Shown: piece by piece, positions 10,009-61,189 of the stretch
How the letters are laid out: each line of letters starts with the position of its first letter
Position numbering within the stretch: position 1 is the stretch's first letter
Origin: Patescibacteria group bacterium
GTDB taxonomy: Bacteria > Patescibacteriota > Microgenomatia > UBA8517
Assembly: GCA_025999275.1 (NCBI GenBank)
Contig: AP024680.1
Span: 1,957 to 65,956 of the forward strand
Direction of reading: 5' to 3'
Length of the DNA: 64,000 nucleotides
Notes under the pieces: generated by a model
The model's database searches: none
What the model was told of the DNA's origin: nothing
What the model saw: the letters and a program-made list of their open reading frames with translations, nothing else
Program-made: the position numbers and the translations under genes

Positions 10009-10135
10009 GGTCTTTCGGCCTTGGCCTATTTTCGCGGGTCCTTGCGAACCAACTATCGTCGGCGCTTAAGCGTTTCACTTCTGAATTCGAAATGGGATCA
10101 GGTGGTTCCGCTTAGCTCTTAAAGACCGAAAGGCC
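10009..10135 (-). rRNA. rrf: 5S rRNA
   Basis: Reverse complement reads ...GCGGAACCACCTGATCCCATTTCGAATTCAGAAGTGAAACGCTTAAGCGCCGACGATAGTTGG... with terminal helix ggcctttcgg / ccgaaagacc. Confidence 0.7.
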
Positions 10136-10225
10136 TAAGACTAAAAGTAAAAAGAATTTTGCCCAAAATAGCAAAGCGAAAGAGAAAAATAGGAAAGGTA
10201 AAAGGTCTTCGACCGATTCGCACTG

Positions 10226-13270
<3,045 letters not shown>

Positions 13271-13357
13271 TTCCCATTTTCTCTTTCGCTTTACCCGCCA
13301 AAATTAATTTGACGAAAGCGATAAGGACAAAATTCTCTTTACTTTTTAAAGTACCTG

Positions 13358-13431
13358 TGGACCTGAGCGGCTTCGAACCGCTGACCTCTACATTGCAAAT
13401 GTAGCGCTCTGGCCAACTGAGCTACAGGCCC
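13358..13431 (-). tRNA. tRNA-Ala (anticodon TGC)
   Basis: Folded by hand. Acceptor GGGCCTG/CAGGTCC. Anticodon loop tTTGCAa. TTCGAAG T-loop. Lies immediately 5' of the 23S, as in canonical rRNA operons. Confidence 0.85.
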
Positions 13432-13659
13432 AAGTCAAAGATTTTTAAAAAGTGCTAACAAATAAAAAACCGACTCTCTTTGAGCCGGTAACCTACATAC
13501 TTAGGAAAACTCTATAATTTAAAAGCCAACAAATAGGCTTAAAATCTTTAGTAATTCTTAAGTTTATTTTCCATTAAACAATACAAAAAATTTCGGCTCA
13601 AAGGCAACAAACATTATAAATGTAAAGTCAAATTTAGTCAATAGTTTAATTATGAACTA

Positions 13660-14020
13660 TGAATAATGGGGTATGGGAAATAGAATATCTAAATTCCAAG
13701 CACTAAATTCTAGACAAAAATAATAACTCAAAAGTCAAAAGGCAAAATTCCTGCCTACCGGCAGGACAGCCTACCGTCAGGCAGGCAGGCAAAATTACCA
13801 GCCCTAGGCTGGTTGGCCTTGGGCCAACAATTCAAAATTAAAAATTATTTAATTATCTAACAAAACTTTTGAATTTTAACTTTGAATTATTTTATTCTTA
13901 ATTCTTAAATCGTAAATCTTAATTCTTTTTTACCATTACTACTTACTGCTTTCTACTTACTACTATCTTTCCAGTTCTGACCAACCCCGCCGTAGGCGGG
14001 GACCAACTTCGACTATCAGC
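13660..14020. repeat. R-family repeat (inverted copy of 6080-6500) between tRNA-Ala and tRNA-Ile
   Basis: Reverse complement matches copy 1 block by block (gggccaacaattcaaaattaaaaattatttaattat; cctgcctaccggcagg; caaaagtcaaaag; ccccgccgtaggcggggaccaacttcgac at 13985-14010). Confidence 0.7.
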
Positions 14021-15618
14021 CATTGCTTAAAATTAACTTTTATCATAAAATAAGTAAGTTCAAGGGTGCGTAGTTCACTGGTAGAACGCTTCTCTGATAA
14101 AGAAGAGGTACATGGTTCGATTCCATGCGCACCCACCAGAAACTGACTTTTAGGCTTTGAAAGAGCCATTTTGTGGGCGGCGCACAGCGCCGCCCATTGA
14201 TTTTGCGGCGTTGCGCGCGCTTCGCGGCCGGCCAAAATGAGGTTCGAGCCAAAGATTTCTTTGGCTATGACCTTTTTAGCAAAAAGGTCATTATCTCTTG
14301 CGATTTTTTCCACTTGTAAAGCGGAATTTATCCAATTTCTGAAAGGTTCGAGCCAATCATTCTGCTTTTGTTCAAAACGGATAATTTGCTCCTCCAGCGT
14401 CTTTTTCTCGCTCATTAGTTTTGCTTTTCTTTGCCGATATTCTTCTCTGTCTATGTCTTGCTCAAGATAAGCCTCTAAAAGTCGCTGGAGCTTGATATTG
14501 ATTTCTCTGATTTTCTCTCTTGCTTCTTGAACAAAAGCAGCGCAGGATTGAGCGGCTTCTTTTTCGTCTTTTTCTGCCATTTTCAATAATTCCTCCGCCC
14601 AATCCTGCGGCAAAGAAACTTTTTGAATCATCTTTGATAACTGCCGATCAAGTTCTTCTTCTCGGATATATGGCTGGGTGCATCTCATCGCTTTGTTTTT
14701 CTTGGTACAGCGGTAATAGATATGTCCTTTTTGAATTTCGGCAGTTATCATCATGCCGCACTCACCACAGCGCAAAAGTCCGGTAAAGGCTTTGGGGATT
14801 TTTTCTTTCTTTTGAGGCTTGCCTCTTTGCTTTAATACTTCCTGAACCTTATCAAAAAGTTTCTTTGCAATGATTGGCTCGTGTTTGCCCTCGTGGATTT
14901 CTCCTCCATAGCGGAAGTGTCCGTAATAAAAAGGGTTAGAAAGGATAAATTTGATTCTATCTTTGTGGATTCTCTTACCATTACGGGATAAAATCCCGTG
15001 GTGCGCCAAAAAGTTGGAGATATCCTCTAAAGTTTTATCGCCTTTGGAGTAATGCTCAAAAGCAGCTTTGATAATTTTGACTTTCTTTTTATCAACAACA
15101 ATTGTTTTTGTCCTTACATCATTGATATAGCCAATAGGAGCAGGTCCCGGATATTCTCCTCTCCTTACTTTTTGGCGCAAACCTCTTTTAGTGTTTTCGG
15201 AAAGAGAATCCACATAATATTTACTTTGCCCAAAAGCAATGTTGAGCATAAACTTGCCTTGAGGGGTTGGCTCAAACCAAAAAGTAGGGAATTTTAGAGC
15301 TTGAAGCTTGCCGGTATCCAATAGAAAAATAATCCTTCCACCATCTACAAAATTGCGCGCCAATCTATCTGGGTGCCAAGCCAAAATTCCTTGAGCCTCG
15401 CCCTTCTCAATTCTCTTTAACATCTCATTAAAAATAGGCCTTCCCGGAATTTTGGCAGATTGTCTTTCTATAAACTCCTTAACAATTGTTATTCCTTCTT
15501 TTTTAGCAAAGGCGCGCAATTCTGTTAATTGAGCCTCAATGCTCAACACCTGCTTATCCTCAACATCTGTGGATTTGCGGGCGTATAAAAAGAATTTTTG
15601 CGATGTTGGATTTTCCAT
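13963..15618 (-). CDS. large serine recombinase (resolvase/invertase catalytic domain + recombinase domain + zinc-ribbon/coiled-coil)
   Basis: N-terminal YARKSTDVEDKQVLSIEAQ (catalytic Ser motif) ...GILAWHPDRLARN. CxxC...C zinc ribbon (LRCGECGMM...YYRC). Long coiled-coil. The last ~55 aa of the 551-aa track ORF read through repeat A and antisense across tRNA-Ile; that part is probably read-through and the true 3' end lies in or near 14140-14330. Confidence 0.85.
   Translation of the reverse strand: MENPTSQKFFLYARKSTDVEDKQVLSIEAQLTELRAFAKKEGITIVKEFIERQSAKIPGRPIFNEMLKRIEKGEAQGILAWHPDRLARNFVDGGRIIFLLDTGKLQALKFPTFWFEPTPQGKFMLNIAFGQSKYYVDSLSENTKRGLRQKVRRGEYPGPAPIGYINDVRTKTIVVDKKKVKIIKAAFEHYSKGDKTLEDISNFLAHHGILSRNGKRIHKDRIKFILSNPFYYGHFRYGGEIHEGKHEPIIAKKLFDKVQEVLKQRGKPQKKEKIPKAFTGLLRCGECGMMITAEIQKGHIYYRCTKKNKAMRCTQPYIREEELDRQLSKMIQKVSLPQDWAEELLKMAEKDEKEAAQSCAAFVQEAREKIREINIKLQRLLEAYLEQDIDREEYRQRKAKLMSEKKTLEEQIIRFEQKQNDWLEPFRNWINSALQVEKIARDNDLFAKKVIAKEIFGSNLILAGREARATPQNQWAALCAAHKMALSKPKSQFLVGAHGIEPCTSSLSEKRSTSELRTLELTYFMIKVNFKQWLIVEVGPRLRRGWSELER
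14064..14138 (+). tRNA. tRNA-Ile (anticodon GAT), opposite in orientation to the rest of the rRNA operon
   Basis: Acceptor GGGTGCG/CGCACCC. Anticodon loop cTGATAa. Encoded CCA. Its last 5 nt (CACCA) begin an 87-bp inverted repeat. Confidence 0.85.
14134..14220. repeat. inverted repeat A, left copy (87 bp perfect; imperfect extension to ~14330), overlapping the tRNA-Ile 3' end
   Basis: caccagaaactgacttttaggctttgaaagagccattttgtgggcggcgcacagcgccgcccattgattttgcggcgttgcgcgcgc is the exact reverse complement of 15854-15940. Contains the GC palindrome tgggcggcgc-aca-gcgccgccca. Confidence 0.9.
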
Positions 15619-15648
15619 AATTCCTAAAACTCAAATGGCCGCCCCGGT

Positions 15649-15722
15649 GCGACCAACCAAGAGAAACCTTGATTGTTCCGAGACGGCCATTAGAAAAGGC
15701 TTCTCTGTCTGGTTGGTCGCAT
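15649..15722. promoter_or_regulatory. 12-bp inverted repeat (gcgaccaaccaa...ttggttggtcgc) in the recombinase upstream region
   Basis: Seen directly in the sequence. Location fits an operator or 5'-UTR structure for the recombinase gene. Confidence 0.3.
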
Positions 15723-15853
15723 TTTCAGTATATCACAAAATCAAAATTAGCAAAAATTCTTTTTATTGAGCAAAGCAAATATTATGCTCGCCTAAAAGGC
15801 GAGCTAAAGGTAGGATTAAAAAAATCGCAAGAGATACGAACCTTATTTTGGCT

Positions 15854-15940
15854 GCGCGCGCAACGCCGCAAAATCAATGGGCGGCGCTGTGCGCCGCCCA
15901 CAAAATGGCTCTTTCAAAGCCTAAAAGTCAGTTTCTGGTG
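15854..15940. repeat. inverted repeat A, right copy (87 bp perfect), abutting repeat B
   Basis: Exact reverse complement of 14134-14220. With indels, weaker similarity continues back to ~15790. Confidence 0.9.
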
Positions 15941-15982
15941 CAATTATACCGTTCCGCTCGAAACTATTTTATCAAAAATTTC
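15936..15982. repeat. inverted repeat B, left copy (47 bp, shares TGGTG/CACCA with repeat A); duplicates the first 16 codons of the gene at 18618..19409
   Basis: tggtgcaattataccgttccgctcgaaactattttatcaaaaatttc matches the reverse complement of 19362-19408 with 1 mismatch. It encodes VQLYRSARNYFIKNF followed immediately by TAA. Confidence 0.85.
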
Positions 15983-16002
15983 TAAAAATTGTTAGCTCCG
16001 GC

Positions 16003-16270
16003 AGTGGCGGCAGGAAAAGGGGTTAAAGGGGAAAATCCTGCCTGTTTGCCTGTCGGCAGGCAGGGAATTGCCGCCACTGCCTCCGCTTTACTGCTCGTCG
16101 TCCCGCCTTACGGCGGGACTCCTCGCAATTTCAAGCCTCATTATTGCTCGGCCGCCTAACGGCGGCCTCGCGCTAATCGCTACTACAGTCGCACCCCCGC
16201 CTTTGCTTGGGGTCGCGCTCCTTTCGCTCGCCCCACCTCTGGCGGGGCTCGCTATCTGCTAGAGAAATTT
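16003..16270. repeat. GC-rich multi-hairpin block (R-family-like palindromes) in an AT-rich genome
   Basis: Palindromes ggcagtggcggca...tgccgccactgcc; cctgcctg...ggcagg; cccgccttacggcggg; ggccgcctaacggcggcc; ccccacctctggcgggg. All are visible as inverted repeats. Confidence 0.5.
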
Positions 16271-16371
16271 TCGCTCATTTCGTATCTAAATAACAATACA
16301 AGTCCTGGCTTGAAGTATTAAAACTATCAAATTTCTCCCGTAGGTTGTAAAATATATTCCACATCCAAACT

Positions 16372-17283
16372 ATGAAAGAAATAAATATAGTTTATTCTGA
16401 AAATTATCTTAAATATGACCTAGGCCTCGACAACCCTATTTCTAAAACCAAAACAGGAATGTTTCTGGAGAAACTTAGAAAAGAAGGAAAAATAGATTAC
16501 AAGGTTTTGGAAGCTCCAAGAGCCGAGGAAGAAGACCTGCTTTTAGTTCATACACCAAGATATCTACAAGAGTTAAGAAGGTTGGCGGACAATAATTTGG
16601 ATTTTGATGCCGATACTCCAGTAAATCATGGGATGTTAGAAGGGGGGTTATATATCATCGGCGGAACCATTCTATCCTTAAACCTTGCTTTGCAAGACGA
16701 AAGAGTTGTAAATCTAATCGGAGGCATGCATCATGCAAGTTCTTACAAAGCTTCCGGTTTTTGTATTTATAATGACCACGCCATAGCTATTCGAAAACTC
16801 CAAAAAGAGGGCAAAATAAAGAAGGCAATTGTTTACGATCTTGATGTGCATGCAGGTCAGGGAACACAAGAAATTTTCTATCATGATGCAAGTGTTATGA
16901 CAGTGTCTATCCATCAAGACCCACGGACAATTTATCCGGGGACTGGTTTTGAATGGCAAAAGGGAGAAGGAGAGGGATTAGGAACAAATATTAATATTCC
17001 ATTGCCTCCTGGTACTATGGAAAGAGAGTATTTGCAAGCATTAGACTCTATATTAGAAAGTACAAAAAGTTTCAGTCACGACATTTCAATCTTAATTTTA
17101 GGAGTTGATACTTATAAAGAGGACTTTCTGGGTGGAATGAGATTAGAAAAGGAAAGTTTTAGAAAGATTGGCGAGAGATTTAGAAATTTCCAGAAATTAG
17201 CAATTCTTTTTGGTGGTGGTTATTCTAGTAAAATTCCAGATCTTTGGATGTTATTCCTAAAAGGTTACTTAGGAATAAATTAA
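16372..17283 (+). CDS. histone-deacetylase-family (AcuC/acetylpolyamine amidohydrolase-like) protein with atypical metal-site motif
   Basis: GGMHHASSY and DLDVHAGQGT (canonical D-x-D-x-H-H-G-D-G; here His->Ala and Asp->Gln). 303 aa. Confidence 0.7.
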   Translation: MKEINIVYSENYLKYDLGLDNPISKTKTGMFLEKLRKEGKIDYKVLEAPRAEEEDLLLVHTPRYLQELRRLADNNLDFDADTPVNHGMLEGGLYIIGGTILSLNLALQDERVVNLIGGMHHASSYKASGFCIYNDHAIAIRKLQKEGKIKKAIVYDLDVHAGQGTQEIFYHDASVMTVSIHQDPRTIYPGTGFEWQKGEGEGLGTNINIPLPPGTMEREYLQALDSILESTKSFSHDISILILGVDTYKEDFLGGMRLEKESFRKIGERFRNFQKLAILFGGGYSSKIPDLWMLFLKGYLGIN

Positions 17284-17883
17284 TCAAAGACTATTTAAAA
17301 ACTCAATTACCTTGTCCTCATAAATCGGTTGTTTTGTTTCTGGGTTTCTGTAACTATGATCCGCATTTGATATTTGGTGGTAAGTTATACTTTGTGATAT
17401 AGCGCCATCCATATCTTTTTTTACCACCTCAATACTTCCAAACTTATCTTTTTCTCCTTGGATAATAGTGATTTTTCCAGTGAATTCATTTAGTTTGACT
17501 TCTCCAGTTACATATCCAAGAACAATTACTTCATATAGTTTTTTTTCTTCATCGGTCAAACTGTTTAGATAATAGCTAGCTATAATTCCACCAAGAGATT
17601 TGCCAATAAGTCGAATATGACTAAATTTATCAAAACCAGCAATCGATAACATTTTCCTAAGTACCTCCAATTCTTCTTTCAACTCTGGACCAGAAGAATG
17701 GTCATCCCCCCTTTCTAAGAAGGGAAAATTGAACATAATCACACTATTGCCTTTACCCTTAGAACTTTCAAACAATTTTTGCATAAAAGGAGAATTTATA
17801 CCCCCGGATCCGCCATGCAAAATTACATCTAGTGTAGTAGCTTTGCTATTATGGAAATGTAAAAAACTGGTCAATTTATTCAT
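17284..17883 (-). CDS. alpha/beta-hydrolase-fold esterase (dienelactone-hydrolase-like)
   Basis: HGGSGG oxyanion-type motif, nucleophile elbow GKSLGG, C-terminal NADHS (His). Confidence 0.55.
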   Translation of the reverse strand: MNKLTSFLHFHNSKATTLDVILHGGSGGINSPFMQKLFESSKGKGNSVIMFNFPFLERGDDHSSGPELKEELEVLRKMLSIAGFDKFSHIRLIGKSLGGIIASYYLNSLTDEEKKLYEVIVLGYVTGEVKLNEFTGKITIIQGEKDKFGSIEVVKKDMDGAISQSITYHQISNADHSYRNPETKQPIYEDKVIEFLNSL

Positions 17884-18509
17884 TTCGGATTTTTCAATTG
17901 GGGTAAATTTTCGACAATTCTACCAATAACCATATCTGGTGTTAAACTAGTAGTATCTATTACTACCGAGTGGAAACATTTCCTCGAAAGATCAATCAAA
18001 CAAGCTTCCATTGCTAAAAATTTTTCGGGCTTGTCTCGTACAAATAAATCTTCCGCTGAAATTTGATCTGGTTGATTTCTCGCACGCATTTCAAGCCTTT
18101 TCAGCCTTTCTTCAATGCTGGCAGTAAAGACAAAAGAAGCATCAAATTTGGGGTGATACGGTAACATATCTATCAAAACTTCTTTTATTCTCGGTGTCCC
18201 TCTTACAGTATGAAAGGCTAAAGATCTCAAAATAATTGTCGAGTCTTGAATAGTGTATCTCTCAGGCCAAACAAAACTTCTGATATCTGCCATAAGGGCG
18301 GCTACATATAAATTTCCTAGAACTTCGGCATCATACGCATCCGCCCTCCGTAAACTATCTGCCAAAAGATAAATTGGGTTATCGTGAACAATAGAATTTC
18401 GTCTTATTTCCCATTCTCTACCAGTATGTTCAATAAAATTCTTGGTGGCTGTTGTCTTTCCAGCTAAATCCATGCCTTCAAAATGTATATATAATGCTCT
18501 TTCTTTCAT
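17880..18509 (-). CDS. P-loop nucleoside/nucleotide kinase (thymidylate-kinase/dNK-like)
   Basis: Walker A GMDLAGKTT near the N-terminus, 209 aa. 4-nt overlap with the upstream hydrolase gene. Confidence 0.55.
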   Translation of the reverse strand: MKERALYIHFEGMDLAGKTTATKNFIEHTGREWEIRRNSIVHDNPIYLLADSLRRADAYDAEVLGNLYVAALMADIRSFVWPERYTIQDSTIILRSLAFHTVRGTPRIKEVLIDMLPYHPKFDASFVFTASIEERLKRLEMRARNQPDQISAEDLFVRDKPEKFLAMEACLIDLSRKCFHSVVIDTTSLTPDMVIGRIVENLPQLKNPK

Positions 18510-18617
18510 ATTTACATCAATACATATAAAACTGAAACAGCATGTGATTTTAACATCCTATGCAGTGTTTTTTTAGATTCATTGGTACTTGTTTCTTGAT
18601 ATTCCAAAAAATATTTC

Positions 18618-19409
18618 TCAACAGCCCTTGGTTGATAAAATAAATCTCCTGGCACCTCCTGCCCCCCCAGTACCCTTACAACCTCCATTGCAGATAATAA
18701 CTGCTTTAAGAGGAACCCCTCTTTTAATTGCTTCTGGAATTACGTTCTTGCCTGAATGAAGATATGCCCCATCCCCAGTAACTGAGATAACATTTTTCGC
18801 ACCTGCCAAAATTCCACCTACCCCTACGCCCAAAGCGGAGCCAAAGCATAAACACGCATCAATTGTGTCAAGGGTATCTTGCGTGTATTCACCTAAATCT
18901 CCTACTACAAATGAGGGTTTCGTTCTTTTAATCGCCGAAAAGAGCTTTTTGTAATTATTTGAAATAATATAGCCACTGGATTTATCGGGAATTTTACCAA
19001 AACAAGCCTCAATTCTCTCGTTTGAAGATAGCGCCACAATTTTCTGCTTAGCAAATCCGTCACCTTGTTCTAAAACTACTACTCTGCGTGACCGATTAAT
19101 TACATTTCTAAGATTGTCGGGAATTGGATAAGTAAAAATTTGCAATTTTCTAAACCCTTTATTCAAATACCTTTTCTCTTCTTCAAGATTACAGCCAAAA
19201 GACAAAAGTAACTTTTTAACCCCATCAAGCTTTGTTAGTTCCTTTTTATACAGCTTATTTATGAAACTTCTTATTTTTTTATTTTTATTGGAAAGAGACT
19301 TTCTCTGAGTTGCTGAATTAATTGGGTGAACAACAAAGCGTGTATGATCTTTAACTATTGGGAAATTTTTGATAAAATAGTCTCGAGCGGAACGGTATAA
19401 TTGCACCAA
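18618..19409 (-). CDS. thiamine-diphosphate-binding protein resembling 2-oxoacid:ferredoxin oxidoreductase beta subunit (orphan, divergent)
   Basis: VGDLGEY...GSALGVGVGGILAGAKNVISVTGDGAY...AVIICNGGCKGTGGAGG fits the OFOR-beta GDG-x27-N(N/G) TPP pattern. The N-terminal ~110 aa are unrelated to it. Its start codon lies inside inverted repeat B'. Confidence 0.45.
   Translation of the reverse strand: MVQLYRSARDYFIKNFPIVKDHTRFVVHPINSATQRKSLSNKNKKIRSFINKLYKKELTKLDGVKKLLLSFGCNLEEEKRYLNKGFRKLQIFTYPIPDNLRNVINRSRRVVVLEQGDGFAKQKIVALSSNERIEACFGKIPDKSSGYIISNNYKKLFSAIKRTKPSFVVGDLGEYTQDTLDTIDACLCFGSALGVGVGGILAGAKNVISVTGDGAYLHSGKNVIPEAIKRGVPLKAVIICNGGCKGTGGAGGARRFILSTKGC
19362..19408. repeat. inverted repeat B, right copy (core CACCA at 19404-19408)
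   Basis: gaaatttttgataaaatagtctcgagcggaacggtataattgcacca. Confidence 0.85.
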
Positions 19410-19424
19410 CTAAAGTTTAACTCA

Positions 19425-19880
19425 ATGAAAGATTGTGTTTTCTGCAAAATAGCAAAAGGAGAAATACCATCAGCAAAAATCTAGGAAGACAAAAATTTCC
19501 TCGCAATCCTTGATATTATGCCAAACACCAAAGGAATGGCTCTTGTTATCAGTAAAAAACACTACGACTCCTATGCTTTCGATATGCCAGAAAATATGTT
19601 TAAGAAATTAATGGTAGCTTCAAAAAAAGTGGCAAAGATTCTTGAAAAAGGACTAAATGTTAAAAGAGTTGCAATGGTAATGGAAGGAATGGGAATCAAT
19701 CATGTACACATTAAACTTTATCCACTACATGGAATAAACAAAAAATTCCAAGAAATGTGGGCAAAAGACAAAGTTTGGTTTGATAAATATGAAGGCTATA
19801 TAAGCACCCAAACAGGAGAAAAAGTAGAAATAAAAGAGCTAGAAAAATTAGCAAGAAGAATTAGAACCAAAAATTCATAA
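19425..19880 (+). pseudogene. HIT-family hydrolase gene interrupted by an in-frame TAG at codon 20 (19482-19484)
   Basis: My translation from ATG 19425: MKDCVFCKIAKGEIPSAKI*EDKNFLAILDIMPNTKG..., continuing into track ORF 19518..19880 (...GINHVHIKLYPLHG). HIT proteins have Tyr/Val at the stop position (CIFCKIxxGEIPxxxVYEDD). It is 16 bp from, and divergent to, the gene starting at 19409. Confidence 0.6.
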
Positions 19881-19921
19881 CTTCTAAAAATAAATTCACT
19901 CTTTAATGTATAATAAAAAGT

Positions 19922-22114
19922 ATGACAGAACTTGTTACTCTTAACTTTAGAATTCCAAGAAATACTGATGTCACACCTGAGGCGGCACAAACTTTCCTTT
20001 CTGCCCTAACGCAGATAAACGCTGTTTCTTTCTGGGAAAAATTAACAGGAGTAGTGCCCCAACCTCTTGCTCTTGAAATTGCTCTCATAAACCAACAAAT
20101 TAGATTTCAAATTACCTGCGACTCTGGCATTGCCCCATTTATTGAAACCCAGCTTCAATCAAACTATCCACTTGTGATTATAGAAAGAGTTGCCGATCCA
20201 CTAACTCGATCAGACCTTTATAAAATCAATCTTCAAAACCTAACAACCACCTCTTTACAACTTAGAAAAGGAAGTTACTACCCAATTGCAACTTTTGATT
20301 CTTTCTCAGAAATTGACCCCCTCTCTTCAATCCTTTCTGTGCTTTCAAAAAGCGATCCGGATGAGTTTGCGTTAATTCAAATTGCACTTGAAGCAACAGA
20401 CTCCTCATGGCAACAAAAAGGAGCATCTTTTGCAGAAAAAGGAACAAAAAATGATGATGGTAGTTATTCCCCAAGATCGGATAAAAATATAATAAATGAA
20501 AAAATCTCTTATACAGGATTTAGGACGTCTATAAGAATTGTTGCAAACCAAACAAAAACCGTAAAAGAATTGGTTAGTGCATTCGGAGTTTTTTCAAGAG
20601 CAGATGGAAATTCTTTCAAAATTAAAAAGAACGGGCTATTTGGATTAAAGAAAGATTCTATTAAAGATGTCATATTAAGAAAAGTAACAGATAACCAGAT
20701 ACTAAACATCAAAGAGCTGGCAACCATTTGGCACTTACCTTCTGAAAAAATAAAAACAACCGGAATTAGCTGGGGCGTCTCAGTCTTATATGAGCCACCC
20801 GACAACCTGCCAATAGCAGTAGATGATGAAAATATCAAAAAGGAAACAAATTTCTTCGCCAAAACATTATTCAAAAACAGAGAGGTTATATTTGGAATCA
20901 AAAACAAAGATAGAATGCGCCATATGTGGGCTGTTGGTAAAACCGGCACAGGTAAATCAACTATGATGGCCAATATGATAATTGATGATTTCAAAAAAGA
21001 TCGAGGTGTTGCCTACATTGATCCGCATGGTGACACCTGTGAGATATTGCTTGATTATATTCCAAGCCACAGAATAAATGATGTCATTTATTTTAATCCT
21101 GCCGACCGTGATTATCCCATTACCCTTAATCCACTTGAGGTTAAAAATAACGAAGAAGCAGAACTAGTAGTTTCAGGTTTAATGAGCATCTTTACCAAAG
21201 TCTGGGCAAATGTTTGGTCTGCAAGAATGGAATACATATTAAGAAATTCGTTTATGACTCTTGCCACCTACCCCAATTCCACTCTTGAGGATGTATTAAA
21301 AATATTGGTCGACAAAAATTTCCGCGATCAAGTCTTGCAAAAAACTACCGATTCGGCTTTGATTCATTTTTGGAGGCAAGAATACGAAAAAATGCCCGAT
21401 CGTCTTCAAAAGGAAGCAATTGCCCCTATTCAAAATAAAGTTGGTCAATTTGTAACCTCACCAATGATAAGACGCATAATCGGTAAATCAAGAAGTACCA
21501 TTTCTCTTGATAAAATAATCAACGAGGAAAAAATTCTACTTGCAAACTTATCTCAAGGAAGACTGGGTGAAGACAATGCAAATCTCTTGGGAGCAATGCT
21601 TATCACCCAAATTCAACTTGCCGCAATGAGGAGAGTTGATATTAAAGCTGAAGAAAGAAAACCCTATTATGTATTTGTTGACGAGTTTCAGAATTTTGCC
21701 ACAGATTCATTTATAAAAATCCTGTCTGAAATTAGAAAATATAACCTTTCCTTAACTCTAGCCAACCAATATATGGCTCAAATCCCCGAAAATGTAAGAA
21801 AAGCAATCTTGGGAAATGCCGGAACAATAATCACATTTTCAGCAGGTGCTGAAGACGCCGCTACCTTAAGCAAAGAATTTGCTGAAGTCTTTTCAGAAAG
21901 CGACCTGGTAAATTTGGCTAATTTCCAGATTGCCATAAAACTAATGATTGATGGACATTCATCAAGGCCTTTCCTTGCCCACACGCTTCCCCTTCCCTTA
22001 TCCAAGAACCAGAACAGACAAAAAGTGATTGAGGTATCAAGGCAAAGGTGGTCAGATAAAAGCAATATCAATCAGCCACCAAATCAAAATTGGAAACAAA
22101 TCAAATTTAGGTAA
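19922..22114 (+). CDS. FtsK/HerA-superfamily ATPase of the T4SS coupling-protein (TrwB/TraD/VirD4) / VirB4 type, with ~300-aa conserved N-terminal domain
   Basis: RMRHMWAVGKTGTGKST (Walker A), YIDPHGD, FNPAD...NPLE, FVDEFQNF (Walker B), RKYNLSLTLANQ, LGNAGTIITF. Paralog of 58510..60843. No N-terminal TM. Confidence 0.65.
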   Translation: MTELVTLNFRIPRNTDVTPEAAQTFLSALTQINAVSFWEKLTGVVPQPLALEIALINQQIRFQITCDSGIAPFIETQLQSNYPLVIIERVADPLTRSDLYKINLQNLTTTSLQLRKGSYYPIATFDSFSEIDPLSSILSVLSKSDPDEFALIQIALEATDSSWQQKGASFAEKGTKNDDGSYSPRSDKNIINEKISYTGFRTSIRIVANQTKTVKELVSAFGVFSRADGNSFKIKKNGLFGLKKDSIKDVILRKVTDNQILNIKELATIWHLPSEKIKTTGISWGVSVLYEPPDNLPIAVDDENIKKETNFFAKTLFKNREVIFGIKNKDRMRHMWAVGKTGTGKSTMMANMIIDDFKKDRGVAYIDPHGDTCEILLDYIPSHRINDVIYFNPADRDYPITLNPLEVKNNEEAELVVSGLMSIFTKVWANVWSARMEYILRNSFMTLATYPNSTLEDVLKILVDKNFRDQVLQKTTDSALIHFWRQEYEKMPDRLQKEAIAPIQNKVGQFVTSPMIRRIIGKSRSTISLDKIINEEKILLANLSQGRLGEDNANLLGAMLITQIQLAAMRRVDIKAEERKPYYVFVDEFQNFATDSFIKILSEIRKYNLSLTLANQYMAQIPENVRKAILGNAGTIITFSAGAEDAATLSKEFAEVFSESDLVNLANFQIAIKLMIDGHSSRPFLAHTLPLPLSKNQNRQKVIEVSRQRWSDKSNINQPPNQNWKQIKFR

Positions 22115-22164
22115 AAGCTACCTAAAATTTGAAAAAGCTCTTTTAAAACCAAAAGGAGGATAAA

Positions 22165-22284
22165 ATGGACTATATTCTACTTGTAGTTGTTCTTTCAATT
22201 TTCCTATGGTTAGTTTTTGTTGTTGCGAATTGGTCAATTACGGTTTCTTTCTACAGAAAATTAATCAATTTGTTCAAAAAATAA
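22165..22284 (+). CDS. 39-aa hydrophobic peptide downstream of the ATPase (not in ORF track)
   Basis: aaggagga RBS 5 nt upstream of the ATG. MDYILLVVVLSIFLWLVFVVANWSITVSFYRKLINLFKK. Followed by a terminator. Confidence 0.4.
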   Translation: MDYILLVVVLSIFLWLVFVVANWSITVSFYRKLINLFKK

Positions 22285-22293
22285 TAATATATT

Positions 22294-22345
22294 TCAAAAG
22301 CCATCCTTTATTTAGGTAAATTTACCTAGCAGAGGATGGCTTTTT
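22294..22345 (+). terminator. rho-independent terminator (second hairpin aacccgc...gcgggtt at 22364-22388)
   Basis: Stem gccatcct/aggatggc followed by tttttt. Confidence 0.6.
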
Positions 22346-23085
22346 TACTTTATAAAAACAAAAACCCGCCTATAAAAGCGGGTTAGACAAAAACTTCAAC
22401 ATCCAAATTATGACCGGGAGAGGTGCCCCGTTTTTTAAACAGTAAAACGGCGACATTAAAACTGGGGTGTGAAACACACTCCTTAGAAAGGAGGTGATCC
22501 ATCCGCCCCTTCCAGGACGGATACCTTGTTACGACTTAATCCTCATCGCTGGTTTCACCTTCTCCCGCCACAGGCGAGATTCGGGTGCCCCCAACTTTGC
22601 TGACTTGACGGGCGGTGTGTACAAGACCTGAGAACGTATTCACCGGAGCTTGGCTGATCTCCGATTACTACCAATTCCGCGTTCATGAGGGCGGGTTTCA
22701 GCCCTCAATCCCCACTGAGAAGCCGTTTGATGAGATTAGCTCCGCGTTACCGCTTGGCAACCCATTGTTAGGCTCCATTGTAGCATGTGTGTCGCCCCGG
22801 ACATAAGGGCCATGCTGACTTGACGTCGTCCCCACTTCCTCCCCGCATGTGCGGGGTTGTCTCCTGTGACCATCTAACACAGGACAGGGGTTGCGCTCGT
22901 TACCCCACTGAAGGGAACACCCCACGGCACGAGCTGACGACAGCCATGCAACACCTGTCTCGCCTTCCTTAATTACTTAAGGATTGTCTCTTATTTCTAA
23001 GAAACTATACGGCGGGATGTCAAACCCGGGTAAGGTTCTTCGGTTCGTCTCGAATTAAACCACATGCTCCACTGGTTGTGCAGGT

Positions 23086-23135
<50 letters not shown>

Positions 23136-23888
23136 CTCGCTTAACGCGTTAGCTTACACCCCGTACCAAAAGGCACAGGGCTAGCGAGCATAAGTTTACG
23201 GCTAGGACTACAGGGGTCTCTAATCCCTTTCGCTCCCCTAGCTTTCGTGTCTCAGCGTCAAGAAACCCCCAGCTACCTGTCTTCACCCTTGGCGTTCCTT
23301 ATCATATCAACGGATTTCACCCCTACATGATAAGTTCCAGTAGCCCCTAAGTTCTTCAATTCTGGCAGTATTGAATCCACTCCTGAGGTTGAGCCCCAGT
23401 CTTTAAGATTCAACTTACCAGAACGCCTACACACTCTTTACGCCCAATAAATCCGGGCAACGCTCGCACCCTACGTCTTACCGCAGCTGCTGGCACGTAG
23501 TTAGCGGGTGCTTATTCGCCAAGGCTTATCAACCTTGGCAAAAGTGGTTTACAACCCTAAGGCCTTCATCCCACACGCGGCGTCGCGGCGTCAGACTTTC
23601 GTCCATTGCGCACGATTCCCAGTTGCTGCCACCCGTAGGTGTATGGGCCGTGTCTCAGTCCCATTCTGGGGGGTCAGACTCTCATCTCCCCTAACCGTCA
23701 TAGCCTTGGTGGGCCATTACCCCACCAACTAGCTGATGGTCCGCAAGCTCCTCCACAAGCGAGCAGTTAAGCCCTTTGGTGCATAGCACCACATGCGGTA
23801 TTAGCCCCGCTTTCGCGGGGGTATTCCCCACTTGTGGGTAGATTCTTACGTGTTACTCAGCCGTTCGCGACTGTCCGTAGGACAGAAC

Positions 23889-24380
23889 ATTTAACAATTA
23901 ACACATAACATTTAACAATTAGCTGTTAACATTTAACTTTTAACAATTGGTTTAGAGAGTTAGGAAAGAAGTTTCTTAGAAAGGCCACCAAGCTGTTTTT
24001 GCTATAATCAAAGCTTTATCTACCAATGTTAGATATTTCTCTTTAGACAATAATTCAAGCGATAAAGCAAGATCAAGACAAGAAACAACTTCACTAATAG
24101 AACCTAGGGCATTCTGAATATATCTCCTAAAATCCTTATCAGTACCCTTTGCAGAACCTTCTGCTATATCAAGACAAACAGAAATTGAGGCTCTTACTAA
24201 TTGATCTGCCAAACTCTTATCCTTCATACGCCAACCTCTTGCGAGAAGATATATATCACGATTGAATGCTTTAGATTCTTGGTAAACCTTAAATTTTAGA
24301 AATCTAAAGACTTCCATTATCTTATTTTAACTTTAATAGTTAACAGTTAAAAGCGTAAAACGTGTGTTAATTTGTTAATT
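23889..24380 (-). other. intervening sequence in 16S helix 6 carrying an ORF; flanks form a long imperfect inverted-repeat stem
   Basis: Exon sequence ...GCATGCAAGTGGGACGGTCCGTAGGACCGAGC | insert | GTTCTGTCCTACGGACAGTCGCGAACGGCTGAGTAACACGT. Insert ends ttaacaaattaacaca.../...ctgttaacatttaac are mutually complementary. Boundaries are approximate (±10 nt). Confidence 0.6.
23976..24317 (-). CDS. four-helix-bundle protein (23S rRNA intervening-sequence protein family, PF05635/TIGR02436-like) encoded inside the 16S IVS
   Basis: 113 aa. ...SISVCLDIAEGSAKGTDKDFRRYIQNALGSISEV... matches the family NIAEG-F/Y core. Confidence 0.75.
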   Translation of the reverse strand: MEVFRFLKFKVYQESKAFNRDIYLLARGWRMKDKSLADQLVRASISVCLDIAEGSAKGTDKDFRRYIQNALGSISEVVSCLDLALSLELLSKEKYLTLVDKALIIAKTAWWPF

Positions 24381-40610: not shown

Positions 40611-42338
40611 TTAAGAAGAAGATTCTTGTAAAGAAAATAAGCTTCTTATCTCACTTACATTTGTCGCGGAAAAGGCATCCTTGTCTTCTCTTATCCTAAC
40701 CAGCCTTGGAAATCTCAACGCATAACCTGAAGAGTGAATTGGGCTTTTAGTTACCTCATCGGCAGCTATTTCAACTACCAAGGAAGGTCTAACCCAAAAA
40801 TCAGGATTAAGAGTTTTATCTACCTCTTCGTATTCTTTTGGTTTTTCATTTACCTCTAAACCCAGCAGTTTTTCCTTAAGAAGTCTAAACTCATCATCAG
40901 TTAATCCTGTACCCAATTTGGTAAGAGATTTTATTTTTTCTTTATCAACAATACCAACTAAAAAACCACCTATTCCGAATTTAGTTCTTTTTCCCTTCCC
41001 AACGTAATATCCCATTATCACTCCATCAACTGTGTCAGCCAACTTTCCTTCTTTCTTTTCAGACTGTTTCATTTTAACCCAACGCCAGCCAGTCCTGCCA
41101 GGAACATATAAACTATCCATCTTTTTAACCATTATTCCTTCAAAACCAGCAGCAATATTTTGTTCAAACAACCTTGATATCTCAACTGGATCCTCAGTTT
41201 CTTTATAATCAACCACTTTAATTATTTTGCTATCTCCGGCAACCTTTTTAAGCACCTCTTTCCTTTCAAAAAATGGTTTGTTCATAAGATTTTCTTTACC
41301 ATTAAGAAGAATGTCAAAAACAAAGAATCTTATTGGAACAGAAGATGTGTGTGATTCTATTTCATGCTTTCTTCTTCTTGTCATAGTAGTCTGAAAATCA
41401 GCCAGTTTTTTTCTCTCCTCATCAATACCAACAGCCTCGCTATCTAAAATCACAGCCTTTGAGTCCAAAAAATTACCAATTTTCAAAAGCTCGGGGAACA
41501 TCCAGGAAACTTCGTTTAAATTGCGAGTGAAAGCCTTTACAAAACCTCCTTTACCCTTAAGAAGATGAATCTGAATCCTCAAACCATCAATTTTTGGCTC
41601 AACAGCAACCTTACCCATTTTTTTTATCATCTCTTTCGGATCGTTAAGCCTCTGAGCTAACATCGGCAAAACTGGAACTCCCACTCTTGGTGAAATATCT
41701 TCAACCACCTTTTTTACTCCAAACTTCTTCACCTGCAGTGCCAGAAGCCCAACATCAGGAAGAACTCCATAAGCTTTCTCAAGAGCAGGTTTTAGAGATT
41801 TATCTTTTGCCTCAAGCCACGAGAGAGCATCAAGAATTGTTTTATCAGAAAAACCAAGTCTTAACTTTCCTAAAACAATTCTTACCACAAATTTGGCAGA
41901 AATTGGCTCAAGTGAAACTAAAATATCTGCTAACTTTTTAATCTTTCTTTCTTGGCTTCCTTCTCCCTCATCTTTAGCCAATTCAAAAAGCAATTTATAC
42001 ACTTCATCTACAGGCAAATCACCTCTTGTTTTCTTGGTAGAAGAAAGCAAAAAAGCCACATCCCCCAGATCACCTCTATTCTTAAAAAGAGAAATTATCT
42101 CATCCCTATTTTTATCAAAGCCTAAGGCCAGTGACTCGATCACCATCTTCTCAGCCAAGTTAAACACCAAACTCTCATACTTGGGACGCAAAAGTCCAAG
42201 AGATAAATAACAAACCTTATCTATTTCAGAAAGATTGGAATAAGAAAAAAGGTCAGCCAAAATCTTGGTAATCTCAATCCTTGAAGAAGTCTTCTCCAAT
42301 TTTTCAAGGAAAAAAGCAAGTTCTTCAAATTTCATCAA
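40611..42338 (-). CDS. ATP-dependent DNA ligase
   Basis: Adenylation motif I VEPKIDGLR. OB-fold C-terminal. 575 aa. Confidence 0.8.
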   Translation of the reverse strand: MMKFEELAFFLEKLEKTSSRIEITKILADLFSYSNLSEIDKVCYLSLGLLRPKYESLVFNLAEKMVIESLALGFDKNRDEIISLFKNRGDLGDVAFLLSSTKKTRGDLPVDEVYKLLFELAKDEGEGSQERKIKKLADILVSLEPISAKFVVRIVLGKLRLGFSDKTILDALSWLEAKDKSLKPALEKAYGVLPDVGLLALQVKKFGVKKVVEDISPRVGVPVLPMLAQRLNDPKEMIKKMGKVAVEPKIDGLRIQIHLLKGKGGFVKAFTRNLNEVSWMFPELLKIGNFLDSKAVILDSEAVGIDEERKKLADFQTTMTRRRKHEIESHTSSVPIRFFVFDILLNGKENLMNKPFFERKEVLKKVAGDSKIIKVVDYKETEDPVEISRLFEQNIAAGFEGIMVKKMDSLYVPGRTGWRWVKMKQSEKKEGKLADTVDGVIMGYYVGKGKRTKFGIGGFLVGIVDKEKIKSLTKLGTGLTDDEFRLLKEKLLGLEVNEKPKEYEEVDKTLNPDFWVRPSLVVEIAADEVTKSPIHSSGYALRFPRLVRIREDKDAFSATNVSEIRSLFSLQESSS

Positions 42339-58424: not shown

Positions 58425-58509
58425 AGATTAACAAGTAGTATTTATTATAGCTTCCCAAAGCCAAAGAGGCAAACACAAGCTGGACAGGGACCGACCTTGT
58501 CCTAAGATT

Positions 58510-60843
58510 CTAAAGCCTCGCTCTTCTTGCAATCTCAGCTTCAACTTCTCTTACATCACGACCATATTTAAGTCTGCTCATTTCCTTAATAATTTGGGCC
58601 ACCCTGGGGTTTTCCTGTTTCTTAATCTCAGCCATATCTTTTGTGGTATCAATTGAAAATGGTGGTACTGGTTCGTTGTGAACAATGGTTTTAACAAAAG
58701 CATTAAATCGCTCAATATTCAAAAGATCCTCCTCAGAAAATACTGGTGCAAATTCACGAGCAAGATATGAAGCATCAGTCACACCCACACGGAAGGAAAT
58801 CTTTGTCCCAACATTCCCAAAAACAGCATTTTTAACTTCCTCTTCCATTTGTCCAATAAACTGATTAGCCACACAAAGATTAAGCCTGTACTTTCTTGCT
58901 TCAGACAAAATTACAGCAAAATCAGGTGTGGCAAAATTTTGAAACTCGTCAACATAAAGATAAAAATCACGCCTTTGATCCTCTGGAGTATCTTGCCTAC
59001 TCATTGCCGCCATTAAGATTCTCGGCACCAAAATTAGCCCTAAGAAACTAGAGTTCTCCTCACCCAATTCTCCTTTGGCCAAATCAATAAGTAAAATCTT
59101 TCCTTGATCCATTACTTCACGAAAAGAAAAAGAAGATTTCGACTGGCCAATAATATTTCTCATCATCCTGTTTGTAACAAAACGACCAAACTTTGAGACC
59201 GTATAGTCCAAAACCTCAGACTTATGAAAATCAGCAGTTTGAGCAATCTGATCAGTCCAATACCTTCTTACCATTGGATCTGTAACCTTTGGTAAAAGCT
59301 CCTGAACAAAACGAGAGTCAGTCATAATACGCACAACTTCAATAAATGTGTTTCCCTCCTCAGCCATTGCCGTTAGCATCGCATTTCTAACACCATGCTC
59401 AAATCTAGGACCAACAATACCGGTTTTATAAGGATCAAAAAGCTTGTACATTAAGTTAATAACAGAGGTGGCTACAAAATGCTTCTGATCCTCTGTTTTC
59501 GCCTCAAGAAGATTTAGTCCCATCGGCCGTTCAGTATCTGCAGGATTAAAGTAAATAACATCTTCTACTCTTTCTGGAGGAATCAATGGTAAAAGTTGGC
59601 GAACTGTATCATGAGGATCAATAAAACAAATTCCCTTTCCCTCCTTTATATCCTGAAGCATCATTTGTTTTAACAGCTCCGACTTCCCTGTTCCTGTCGC
59701 ACCAATTATGTAAATGTGTCTTCTCCTGTCATCATCAGAAATACAAACCCTCCTTTTAATACCTCTAAAAACACTCATACCCAAAAACAAACCTTCCTCT
59801 GGAACCTGACTCGGAGCAGGCGCCCTTTTTGCATTCAACCACTGAATATTGGGCGTGGTAATACTTCTGTTAGGAAAATGGAAAATAGTCGCCAACTCCT
59901 CAGAATTCAAAATGGAAGGGCGATTACCCCAAAAATGAAACATAGGCTGATACCTATAAAGAAAATCTTCCATAAAAGAGGCTTTATGGCGAATCTTTCT
60001 TGATTTAAAACCATTAAATTCACTCGAGAATTGCTCAAAAGTAGCACTAATATTTCCTAAATGAGTCTTAGCAAGCTCAGAAGTAGGAGAAACAACCACT
60101 GCTCTTATTGATACCTCAAAACCAGGCTTGCTAATTTTATTTTCAACTGCTTCAAGAGCCTTTCCTGAAACACTAAACTTAGCCTTTTCCGGATCAGACT
60201 CTCTTTTTTTTGTTTCAGAAATAAAACTGGAGCCATCTTTTTGCCACTTTGACTCAGCAGGAGAAATCAAAATTTGAATCGCCGCTGCCTCATTTTCACC
60301 CATTTTAGCTAAAACAGAAGTAATGGAAGATAAAGGATCAACGGGCAAATCTTTAAAAGTCTTAATAGGTTTATAATTCTCAGCTCTTAACTGGAAAGAT
60401 TTGTAAGCAACCTTCCCATCCTCAGTAAAAATATTATATTCTGGAACCTCTACAATTTCTGCATCAGGATAGGCACCATTAATCTGTTTTTCCACCATAT
60501 CCTTAAATTTAGTCGGACACCAAACATAAAAATTAATCGAACCCTCACGAGCAACAATTTCAAAACTAATCGAGGGTTGAAAAGAAAACTTCTGCTTCCA
60601 ACCGCCTTTCTTAATAGAAAATAATGAGGCAAAAACCTGCTCCATAGCATCTATCTTGACTTCATTTGAACGCGGCACTAAAACACGAAGAAGAACTGAA
60701 TCTATAGAATCTTTTTCCCTTCCCCGCCACCTAAAAAGGGTAAAAACAACAAAACCAAATCCGGTCAATAAAAAGGTTGCAAAAAGAAAAATAACAATAA
60801 AGAAAAGAATGGTATTAATATCAGGCATTAACTCCACCTCCAA
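58510..60843 (-). CDS. T4SS coupling-protein/VirB4-type P-loop ATPase with N-terminal TM segment (paralog of 19922..22114)
   Basis: RRRHIYIIGATGTGKSE, FIDPHD, FNPAD, LYVDEFQNF, RKYRLNLCVANQ, FGNVGTKISF. N-terminal hydrophobic stretch ILFFIVIFLFATFLLTGFGFVVFTLF. Confidence 0.65.
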   Translation of the reverse strand: MEVELMPDINTILFFIVIFLFATFLLTGFGFVVFTLFRWRGREKDSIDSVLLRVLVPRSNEVKIDAMEQVFASLFSIKKGGWKQKFSFQPSISFEIVAREGSINFYVWCPTKFKDMVEKQINGAYPDAEIVEVPEYNIFTEDGKVAYKSFQLRAENYKPIKTFKDLPVDPLSSITSVLAKMGENEAAAIQILISPAESKWQKDGSSFISETKKRESDPEKAKFSVSGKALEAVENKISKPGFEVSIRAVVVSPTSELAKTHLGNISATFEQFSSEFNGFKSRKIRHKASFMEDFLYRYQPMFHFWGNRPSILNSEELATIFHFPNRSITTPNIQWLNAKRAPAPSQVPEEGLFLGMSVFRGIKRRVCISDDDRRRHIYIIGATGTGKSELLKQMMLQDIKEGKGICFIDPHDTVRQLLPLIPPERVEDVIYFNPADTERPMGLNLLEAKTEDQKHFVATSVINLMYKLFDPYKTGIVGPRFEHGVRNAMLTAMAEEGNTFIEVVRIMTDSRFVQELLPKVTDPMVRRYWTDQIAQTADFHKSEVLDYTVSKFGRFVTNRMMRNIIGQSKSSFSFREVMDQGKILLIDLAKGELGEENSSFLGLILVPRILMAAMSRQDTPEDQRRDFYLYVDEFQNFATPDFAVILSEARKYRLNLCVANQFIGQMEEEVKNAVFGNVGTKISFRVGVTDASYLAREFAPVFSEEDLLNIERFNAFVKTIVHNEPVPPFSIDTTKDMAEIKKQENPRVAQIIKEMSRLKYGRDVREVEAEIARRARL

Positions 60844-61189
60844 TCTTTGTTTTAGCCAAACTTACTACCTGCCAACCAAAATGTCTAGCCTTTTCTATCA
60901 GCCTTAAAAAGAATTTAGCCAACCATGTTTTGGAATCGTCTATATCACCCTTACTCTCCTGAACCAAAACATCCTCACTCCTTGGTAATTCAACAACCAC
61001 TTCTTTAGTCTCAGGAGTACTAATCAAAGGCATACCCTGACTATCAGTTACCTGACTCTTAAACTGAGTTTGAGTAACCTGCACACCCGGAGCAATTTTT
61101 TCTATTTTTTCAGAAAGAGTCTCTGGTCTTACAACAATATCCTGTTCTCCAGGAGATAAAATTGGTTCCTTTTCAAGGGGTGTGGCCAT
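60821..61189 (-). CDS. hypothetical protein translationally coupled (23-nt overlap) to the downstream ATPase
   Basis: 122-aa ORF, no TM, acidic middle. Confidence 0.4.
   Translation of the reverse strand: MATPLEKEPILSPGEQDIVVRPETLSEKIEKIAPGVQVTQTQFKSQVTDSQGMPLISTPETKEVVVELPRSEDVLVQESKGDIDDSKTWLAKFFLRLIEKARHFGWQVVSLAKTKIGGGVNA

Follow-up and report, generated by a model that had tools for sequence, protein, structure and literature searches.

The 64,000-nt stretch of contig AP024680.1 analyzed here (the window, whose positions are used for all coordinates unless another locus is named) belongs to the chromosome of a member of the Woesebacteria, within the candidate phyla radiation (CPR), and is an ordinary CPR segment with unlinked rRNA genes, tRNA genes, and housekeeping genes. 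It contains two genes, here called A and B, for related ATPases. The likeliest reading is that they encode a hexameric motor for translocation or coupling that is associated with the membrane and probably serves a chromosomal type IV secretion system (T4SS). In its full form, this reading holds that the chromosomal paralogs A and B represent a separate subfamily of translocases that resemble type IV coupling proteins (T4CPs), that a VirB4-like N-terminal domain in front of the motor is the hallmark of the subfamily, and that a chromosomal T4SS is served; taken jointly, we give these statements an even chance of being right.

That CPR genomes contain about two unlinked T4CP homologs each is already published at survey level: 5,713 homologs of the VirD4 type were identified in 2,918 Patescibacteria genomes in 2025 (PMC12102498), and the survey leaves them as unexplained “T4CP homologues”. 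The architecture, the small partner gene, and the cellular job of the surveyed gene pair have no earlier description. What the present analysis adds is the architecture, the link to relatives in plasmids and phages, the split into soluble and anchored forms, the small gene coupled to B, and the extreme degree of conservation. The results refine a known but uncharacterized system, rather than adding a new kind of system, and they bear on the divergence of VirB4 and VirD4.

Gene A (19922..22114, forward strand) encodes a soluble protein of 730 amino acids without a transmembrane (TM) segment, in which a DUF8128 domain precedes an ATPase motor of the VirD4/TrwB type, as judged from Pfam matches and from the PF26449 annotation carried by its homologs. 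The N-terminal domain spans residues 1-300 (19922..20821) and has at its end the motif ELATIWHLP (20714..20740), of which E265, H271, and P273 are invariant across both paralog families. It is followed by the Walker A motif GKTGTGKS (20936..20959), with invariant G/T/G/G/K alignment columns, the Walker B region VDEFQNF (21677..21697), with invariant V-D-E-F-Q-N-F-A-T columns, and the motif LANQ at residues 613-616 (21758..21769), where the conserved A-N-Q after Walker B corresponds to the invariant A659, N660, and Q661 in the numbering of B. Gene B is located on the reverse strand (58510..60828) and encodes a TM-anchored protein with the same two domains. Its N-terminal TM helix covers residues 9-38 in a 777-residue numbering (60730..60819), with a hydrophobicity of 2.6 at residue 15, and is modelled as one long helix, H9-38. 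The DUF8128 domain of B (residues 47-345; 59809..60705) was delimited by alignment to the N-terminal domain of A, and PF26449 is listed for its orthologs. The counterpart of the A motif reads ELATIFHFP, and the motor contains GATGTGKS (59680..59703), VDEFQNF (58933..58953), and VANQ (58861..58872), all on the reverse strand. The motifs IDPH(G)D and FNPAD are also found in both copies, and in the alignments neither GxTGTGKS nor VDEFQNF varies within either family. The two proteins align over 705 amino acids with 34% identity (E 9e-129), and they are thus paralogs. The original prediction, made from the sequence of the window, was accurate in the positions of the two reading frames, their paralogy, and every motif that it quoted. 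It had also noted that only B has a TM helix, and this split holds well beyond the window: 118 of 120 A-type homologs have no TM segment, while 119 of 120 B-type homologs have an N-terminal TM helix.

The start of B is most likely the ATG at 60828, which gives a protein of 772 amino acids, rather than the TTG at 60843, which gives 777. This choice is based on the Shine-Dalgarno sequence upstream of the ATG, GGAGGTGGAG, and on the length of 772 amino acids in the 100%-identical database entry P0121 and in most close orthologs. Immediately upstream of B is an open reading frame (ORF) of 122 codons, p122 (60821..61189, reverse strand), a small and fast-evolving partner gene that is translationally coupled to B, its TGA stop codon overlapping the start of B in ATGCCTGA. 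An overlap of these two genes had been predicted and is real, but with the ATG start its size is 8 nt rather than 23 nt.

The motor domains match the T4CP families of Pfam above their cut-offs. TrwB_AAD_bind scores 37.3 bits in A and 35.7 bits in B (cut-off 20.5), and TraG-D_C scores 33.2 and 25.6 bits (cut-off 22), respectively. DUF87 reaches 31.9 bits in A (cut-off 23.2), overlapping the TrwB_AAD_bind match and scoring below it, and is under the cut-off in B. The best NCBIfam matches are to the VirD4-like CD1115, TraD, and CedD models, and a profile of the family searched against the PDB sequences matches DotL and TrwB only, at the level of the P-loop. The nucleotide-binding domain (NBD) with Walker A and B motifs is the sole domain common to all T4CPs (PMC7431656), and both A and B contain it. 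The N-terminal TM domain is present in most, but not all, T4CPs, and those without it are a recognized class (PMC7431656).

Another feature of T4CPs is an all-alpha domain inserted in the NBD. The AlphaFold2 (AF2) model of full-length B (pLDDT 86.2) consists of the long N-terminal TM helix, the N-terminal domain, and a RecA-type motor with such a helical insert: a helical block, H451-565, separates Walker A at 381-388 from Walker B at 631-637, the Pfam match spans this block, and the superposition with TrwB agrees. In a Foldseek search with full-length B, TrwK/VirB4 was found first (6e-17, about 850 columns), and TrwB was matched over the motor only (3e-13, TMt 0.59-0.66, 17% identity). Placement as a plain HerA helicase or FtsK was not found. 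FtsK proteins are characterized by a multi-TM N-terminal domain and a gamma domain besides the FtsK_SpoIIIE motor signature. The FtsK_SpoIIIE match covers only the P-loop and, with 14-21 bits, stays under the cut-off of 24, and the Pfam scan revealed neither a gamma/KOPS-type DNA-recognition domain nor an FtsK signature in A or B. As for HerA, which is characterized by a HAS-barrel N-terminal domain, a best-matching HerA central domain, and a NurA partner, the HerA structures rank under TrwK and TrwB, and no NurA-like gene was found among the neighbors of 29 diverse B-type loci. Taken together, the sequence and profile comparisons support placing A and B among the FtsK-HerA ATPases in the branch that contains VirD4, TrwB, and TraD, in line with the family first proposed for them.

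The similarity to the T4CPs VirD4, TrwB, and TraD (structures 1E9R/1GKI for TrwB, 6SZ9 for DotL, and 8DOL for Cag-beta) thus includes the P-loop motor with its all-alpha insert, the membrane anchor of B, and a small accessory protein from a neighboring gene, comparable to CagZ, TraM, and IcmSW. However, A and B differ in that a DUF8128 domain of about 300 amino acids is placed before the motor, which in B means between anchor and motor, and in that B has a single TM helix rather than the usual two and A has none. Furthermore, their genes are chromosomal, duplicated, unlinked to T4SS or relaxase genes, and far more conserved than those of plasmid T4CPs.

The N-terminal region had been described as novel and without a named homolog, which does not hold. 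It corresponds to the Pfam family PF26449 (DUF8128), located before PF10412, which is precomputed for P0121 and for all of the 240 listed homologs. The assignment of A and B to DUF8128 comes from these annotated homologs; our own Pfam scan, with a model set that did not include PF26449, gave no match in the first 320 residues or so. No paper that mentions DUF8128 or PF26449 was found in a literature search. A phmmer search with the domain retrieved 943 representatives of clusters at 50% identity, in which it is always N-terminal, and the full-length matches in the list of the best 150 comprise about 700-1,130 amino acids. For residues 1-325 of A, an AF2 model computed with 144 sequences reached a pLDDT of 87.8 and a pTM of 0.84 and shows tandem beta-alpha-beta units. 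When this model was compared with the PDB by Foldseek, the top 12 matches were all R388 TrwK/VirB4 (E to 5.8e-5, probability 1.0, TMq 0.40-0.47), followed by generic double-ferredoxin folds with low probability. In the BFVD database, the domain matches the gp156 protein of phage G and proteins of phages Slash and JL (TMq 0.64-0.68), as well as an entry named “component of type IV transporter system”. The confident model thus predicts for DUF8128 a tandem alpha/beta fold that resembles the N-terminal domain (NTD) of VirB4.

Since no structure matches the N-terminal domain or full-length B better than TrwK/VirB4, and since a small ORF that overlaps the start of an ATPase gene mimics the order virB3-virB4, A and B could instead be divergent VirB4-type ATPases with a true VirB4 NTD, in which p122 and the TM helix of B take the role of VirB3. 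The layout of an N-terminal domain followed by a C-terminal motor is indeed the same as in the R388 protein (7O41-7O43, 8RTB, 8RTD), and the BFVD match to a transporter component also fits. We nevertheless consider this improbable. The profiles favor a T4CP: AAA_10 scores 14.7 bits against 27.5, TIGR00929 VirB4_CagE 9.4 bits against 643, and VirB4_plasma only 16 bits, while CagE_TrbE_VirB of Pfam gives no match. Furthermore, the TM-score to the TrwK NTD is only 0.40-0.47, and CPR genomes contain their own distinct VirB4 clade (PMC12102498). There is no TM segment in 30 of the 32 members of the p122 family, unlike in VirB3, which argues that p122 is not a VirB3, and no VirB3, VirB6, or VirB8 gene adjoins B, either in the window or among 117 neighbors of the 29 B-type loci. 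Finally, a hidden Markov model (HMM) built from the CPR N-terminal domains alone does not match the VirB4-like ATPase of a Bacillus plasmid, in which a member of the present family and a separate bona fide VirB4 coexist.

The reading as T4CP-like translocases draws further on such relatives outside the CPR. A tblastn search identified proteins that cover residues of about 50-730 in B, or about 85% of the protein, with 20-30% identity. These are encoded by the large Bacillus phages G (gp156), SPO1 (gp27.4), CP-51, and 0305phi8-36, and by 347 plasmids of Bacillus, Streptomyces, Staphylococcus, haloarchaea, and Sulfolobus. The phage family PHROG 5156 matches A and B with 245-309 bits, and the N-domain HMM detects two Bacillus subtilis plasmid proteins (7e-26 and 5e-20) and SPO1 gp27.4 (2e-17). 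Like A, these proteins, annotated as DUF87 on the plasmids, are soluble and contain a DUF8128-like domain followed by a T4CP-like motor, but they are longer (885-913 amino acids), with extra C-terminal sequence, and have no p122-like partner. The Bacillus plasmid homologs (for example, WP_345805471.1 on NZ_CP154917.1 and WP_144625398.1 on NZ_OX419581.1) are located at the head of a conjugation operon similar to those of Tcp and ICEBs1. The gene that directly follows encodes a “replication-relaxation family” protein, and TcpD/TcpE-type genes and the separate VirB4-like ATPase are likewise found downstream. They thus occupy the slot of the coupling protein beside a relaxase-like gene in a full conjugation set. 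Of the evidence available, this position speaks most strongly for substrate coupling in T4SSs of the monoderm type as the ancestral job of the DUF8128 ATPases, and it also agrees with the published conclusion that the CPR T4SS is derived from the MPF-FATA class. No experimental characterization of these plasmid and phage proteins was found in the literature searched. The pLS20 family is not their home, as the T4CP of pLS20 is a classical VirD4 with two TM helices; the plasmids with DUF8128 homologs are therefore of a different, Tcp-like type. Two other arrangements of the domain were also observed: the plasmid pHAR01 of Halorubrum salinarum (L099 6824-14047) encodes a 2,407-amino-acid protein with the same module of N-terminal domain and motor, and in Bacillus phage G the products of two adjacent genes, gp155 and gp156, both match the N-domain model.

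Within the CPR, at least 6,000 clusters at 90% identity were retrieved for each paralog, nearly all of them from Patescibacteria, Woesebacteria, or Microgenomates, and the homologs are named [quoted passage not shown] or “DUF87” in the databases. A-type and B-type genes occur together in all four genomes or contigs where this could be checked, namely the window, CP055308, one contig of 129 kb, and one of 170 kb. Two distant lineages contain tandem pairs of DUF8128 ATPase genes on the same strand (L083 242-6143 and L093 4947-10564). Because both members of each pair have N-terminal TM helices, the soluble A-type apparently arose later, in some lineages only. The conservation of B is extreme: between the same pairs of genomes, it shows 71-91% identity, as compared to 42-78% for ribonucleotide reductase (RNR), 62-87% for Xer, 68-75% for FtsH, and 36-63% for an aminoacyl-tRNA synthetase. 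On these identities, B is evidently under very strong purifying selection, and its conservation above that of RNR, Xer, FtsH, and the synthetase argues for a core cellular role. For p122, the identity is only 35-64% where that of B is 71-91%.

The gene p122 is real and is a conserved partner of B, as the original prediction had supposed. Neither of the outcomes named in advance as refuting that prediction, membership in an unrelated ATPase family or partners that are not conserved at other loci, thus applies to B. It is located directly upstream of B in five of five Woesebacteria loci (tblastn, E 2e-37 to 5e-13), and an iterated HMM search of the fetched loci detected homologs at 32 of about 59 testable B-type loci, down to an identity of about 47% in the ATPase; a word-index search gave only seven matches. 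The gap between p122 and B is typically -29 to +32 nt. In the alignment, 19 columns are invariant, and an amphipathic helix is conserved near the C-terminus (SKG..TW[LF]A.FWLR..KA..FGW), with a high hydrophobic moment at residues 92-109. About 12 further B-type loci have an abutting small ORF without detectable similarity to p122, among them a second recurring family with the motif IEKEWIDKAKDII.KT.DDPY (L085 4363-4791, L091 4366-4785, and L092 314-730), at distant loci where the ATPase is 42-45% identical. The presence of a different conserved family at these loci suggests that the partner slot upstream of B can be filled by an unrelated, or unrecognizably diverged, protein.

The small ORF next to A has a narrower distribution. 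It encodes a hydrophobic peptide of 39 residues, p39 (22165..22284, forward strand), and is preceded by the Shine-Dalgarno sequence AAGGAGG at a distance of 6 nt. A hairpin read from the sequence, GCCATCC...GGATGGC with an inner palindrome and six T residues (22296..22346, forward strand), is the likely intrinsic terminator of the A-p39 transcript; the terminator scanner missed it owing to an 8-nt loop limit. While the predicted ribosome-binding site and terminator were thus found, the role of p39 as a partner of A throughout the family was not borne out: p39 and its Shine-Dalgarno sequence are conserved only in the two closest relatives (L094 and L095, where A is 97% and 88% identical), and no match was found at the eight more distant A loci, where A is at or below 81% identity. 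The sequence comparisons thus suggest that p39 is probably a real small membrane peptide of a narrow clade, and not a family-wide partner.

If A and B are T4CP-like translocases, B would form an ATP-driven hexameric ring on the inner, cytoplasmic side of the membrane, and the N-terminal domain would lie between membrane and motor. Produced stoichiometrically with B, p122 may bind to it through the C-terminal amphipathic helix and serve as an adaptor or regulator, analogous to CagZ, TraM, or IcmSW. The soluble A would act beside or on B, in the manner of T4CP pairs of the TraG-TraJ type, the inner and outer VirB4 rings, or CedB/CedD. Together, the two would recruit a macromolecular substrate, DNA or protein, and pump it most likely into an MPF-FATA-type T4SS that in related Woesebacteria would be encoded elsewhere on the chromosome, and p39 would be a clade-restricted add-on.

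Several observations weigh against this reading. Although the Pfam scores above the gathering threshold and the profile matches to DotL and TrwB indicate a T4CP-type motor, A and B belong to no named equivalog, as the NCBIfam T4CP models (TraD_Ftype, SXT_TraD, and conju_CD1115) give at best 40.7 bits against cut-offs of 250-650. The genetic association of T4CPs with T4SS or relaxase genes is missing: VirB4, VirB6, VirB8, pilin, and relaxase families are all absent from the scanned neighbors in the window, as predicted, and no T4SS component or relaxase was found within about three genes of the 29 B-type loci, which have 117 neighbors in total, or near the A loci. In the survey, only 148 of the 5,713 CPR genes are near virB4, and its authors write that exaptation “cannot be ruled out” (PMC12102498). 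The T4CP homolog of Southlakia epibionticum is dispensable for epibiotic growth while the T4SS genes are essential, and relaxases are almost absent from the CPR (PMC12102498), which would leave a classical DNA-coupling role without its usual substrate. A conservation above that of FtsH is also atypical for a conjugative T4CP, and the hexameric state, the interaction of A with B, and that of B with p122 are parts of the model that we infer.

The absence of T4SS genes next to A and B does not extend to the genomes of their relatives. In the rows for Woesebacteria that were checked in Table S1 of the survey (PMC12102498), the genomes are VirB4-positive, including the one that holds the A-type homolog P0120. 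Consequently, A and B are orphans by locus but probably not by genome, and the suggestion that they are a stand-alone minimal module is doubtful. The essential T4SS cluster of Southlakia contains no recognizable coupling protein (Wang et al., PMC10633639).

Alternatively, A and B may be a housekeeping translocase that is independent of T4SSs and that, with p122 and some channel, has been exapted for a core chromosomal task, such as the import of DNA as a source of nucleotides or genes, or, in the manner of FtsK, the clearing of the chromosome and the activation of Xer at the septum. Along with the rarity of virB4 in the vicinity, the dispensability for epibiosis, and the exaptation suggested by the survey, the higher conservation of B than of RNR, Xer, FtsH, and the synthetase speaks for this alternative, and so does the genomic position of both genes. 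A is encoded on the strand opposite to the 23S and 16S rRNA genes and lies in the interval that separates them, both in the window and in each of the seven fetched loci where both rRNA genes are seen. In Woesebacteria, the gene order around B is NrdR, class II RNR, PduO adenosyltransferase, the small ORF, B, a variable segment, XerC/D, DivIC, the tryptophanyl- or tyrosyl-tRNA synthetase, and FtsH, and the families that recur at the 29 loci are Xer-type integrase (10), Cob_adeno_trans (8), DivIC (5), and RNR (3). However, the adjacency to Xer and DivIC may be a gene order inherited in the Microgenomatia, which fades in distant loci. A function like that of FtsK is further opposed by the missing gamma/KOPS-type domain and the low FtsK_SpoIIIE scores, and TM7x, a CPR bacterium, has an annotated ftsK (PMC10768705). 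A precedent for DNA import is provided by the Ced system of the Sulfolobales, where CedB and CedD are two paralogous and chromosomal, non-mobile proteins with a TM segment, an N-terminal domain similar to parts of the VirB4 NTD, and a motor of the FtsK/HerA superfamily, both of which are needed (PMC11868833). CedD is also among the NCBIfam matches (E 1.5e-10). Yet this likeness is confined to the P-loop, at 40 bits against a cut-off of 600 for CedD and 15 bits against 700 for CedB. The Ced motors are classified as HerA/VirB4 rather than T4CP and are encoded beside CedA channel genes, of which no counterpart was seen among the neighbors at the B-type loci, and they are found where VirB4 is absent, while the Woesebacteria are VirB4-positive. 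The closest characterized context, that of the Bacillus plasmids, is conjugative. We regard the housekeeping alternative as the main rival, though an unlikely one.

More tentatively still, and at rather long odds, the DUF8128 ATPases, with B and its small subunit and the soluble A, may be a core and near-essential translocation machine of the CPR that is independent of conjugation, for example a motor for the uptake of macromolecules from, or their delivery to, a host cell. They could then also be an evolutionary link, which would show that the VirB4-type N-terminal domain was present in the common ancestor of VirB4 and VirD4 and was later lost by the classical VirD4. The tiny genomes of Patescibacteria keep about two copies, which are probably central to the CPR lifestyle given that in Woesebacteria they are more conserved than RNR or FtsH. 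The VirB4-like domain, the anchored/soluble split, the co-translated partner, and the architecture common with proteins of Bacillus plasmids and SPO1/G-type phages are handles for experiments in genetically tractable Saccharibacteria.

It had also been proposed that both copies sit next to recombination hardware, and the window does contain a serine recombinase and a Xer-type recombinase. Together with the homologs in Bacillus phages and many plasmids and the score of PHROG 5156, this could point to cargo of a mobile element, such as an integrated conjugative element or a prophage remnant, or to a HerA-type defense component like mad8 of the MADS system, which PADLOC reports at 64-72 bits beside weak HerA models. 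We judge such an origin very improbable. The link to recombination breaks down on both sides, since Xer is part of the conserved housekeeping synteny at B, and the serine recombinase is part of a block of about 5.8 kb (13963-19900) between tRNA-Ile and A that has no counterpart in two relatives, L012 and L013, in which A comes directly after the tRNA. In many genomes, the two loci keep their gene order, with neighbors that encode rRNA, RNR, aminoacyl-tRNA synthetases, FtsH, and DivIC, and B is more conserved than housekeeping genes. The recurrent families listed at the 29 B-type loci (25 of 86) include none from T4SSs, relaxases, phage structures, or defense systems, a tandem second ATPase (2 members) aside. 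The mad8 match is restricted to the motor, with no other mad gene among the neighbors, and the prophage reading of PHROG 5156 was rejected on genomic context.

The 5.8-kb block resembles either an integration targeted to a tRNA gene or a variable hotspot. The large serine recombinase ORF (13963-15618, reverse strand) overlaps the gene for tRNA-Ile(GAU) (14064-14138, forward strand), and the other genes of the block encode HDAC-like, alpha/beta hydrolase, thymidylate-kinase-like, TPP-domain, and HIT proteins. The split rRNA operon in which it is placed extends over 10013-23962, with the 16S and 23S rRNA genes 9.2 kb apart and protein genes between them, and an antisense protein gene, A, is conserved within the split operon at loci L001, L002, L004, and L010-L013. 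The 23S rRNA genes of two relatives contain group I introns (L004 4869-5151 and L013 3317-3546), and a gene for a four-helix-bundle protein of the 23S_rRNA_IVP family is located immediately upstream of the 16S rRNA gene in the window (23976-24317, reverse strand).

At the B locus of relatives, the class II RNR contains an intein with a LAGLIDADG domain (L014 373-4002), while the copy in the window has no intein. At 40611-42338 on the reverse strand, this bacterial genome encodes an ATP-dependent DNA ligase with the three domains of the archaeal/eukaryotic type (DNA_ligase_A_N/M/C). Bacteria normally read AUA by means of a tRNA with a lysidine-modified CAU anticodon. Just downstream of B, at 58350-58425 on the reverse strand, ARAGORN predicts a tRNA-Ile with the anticodon UAU, which is unusual for bacteria.

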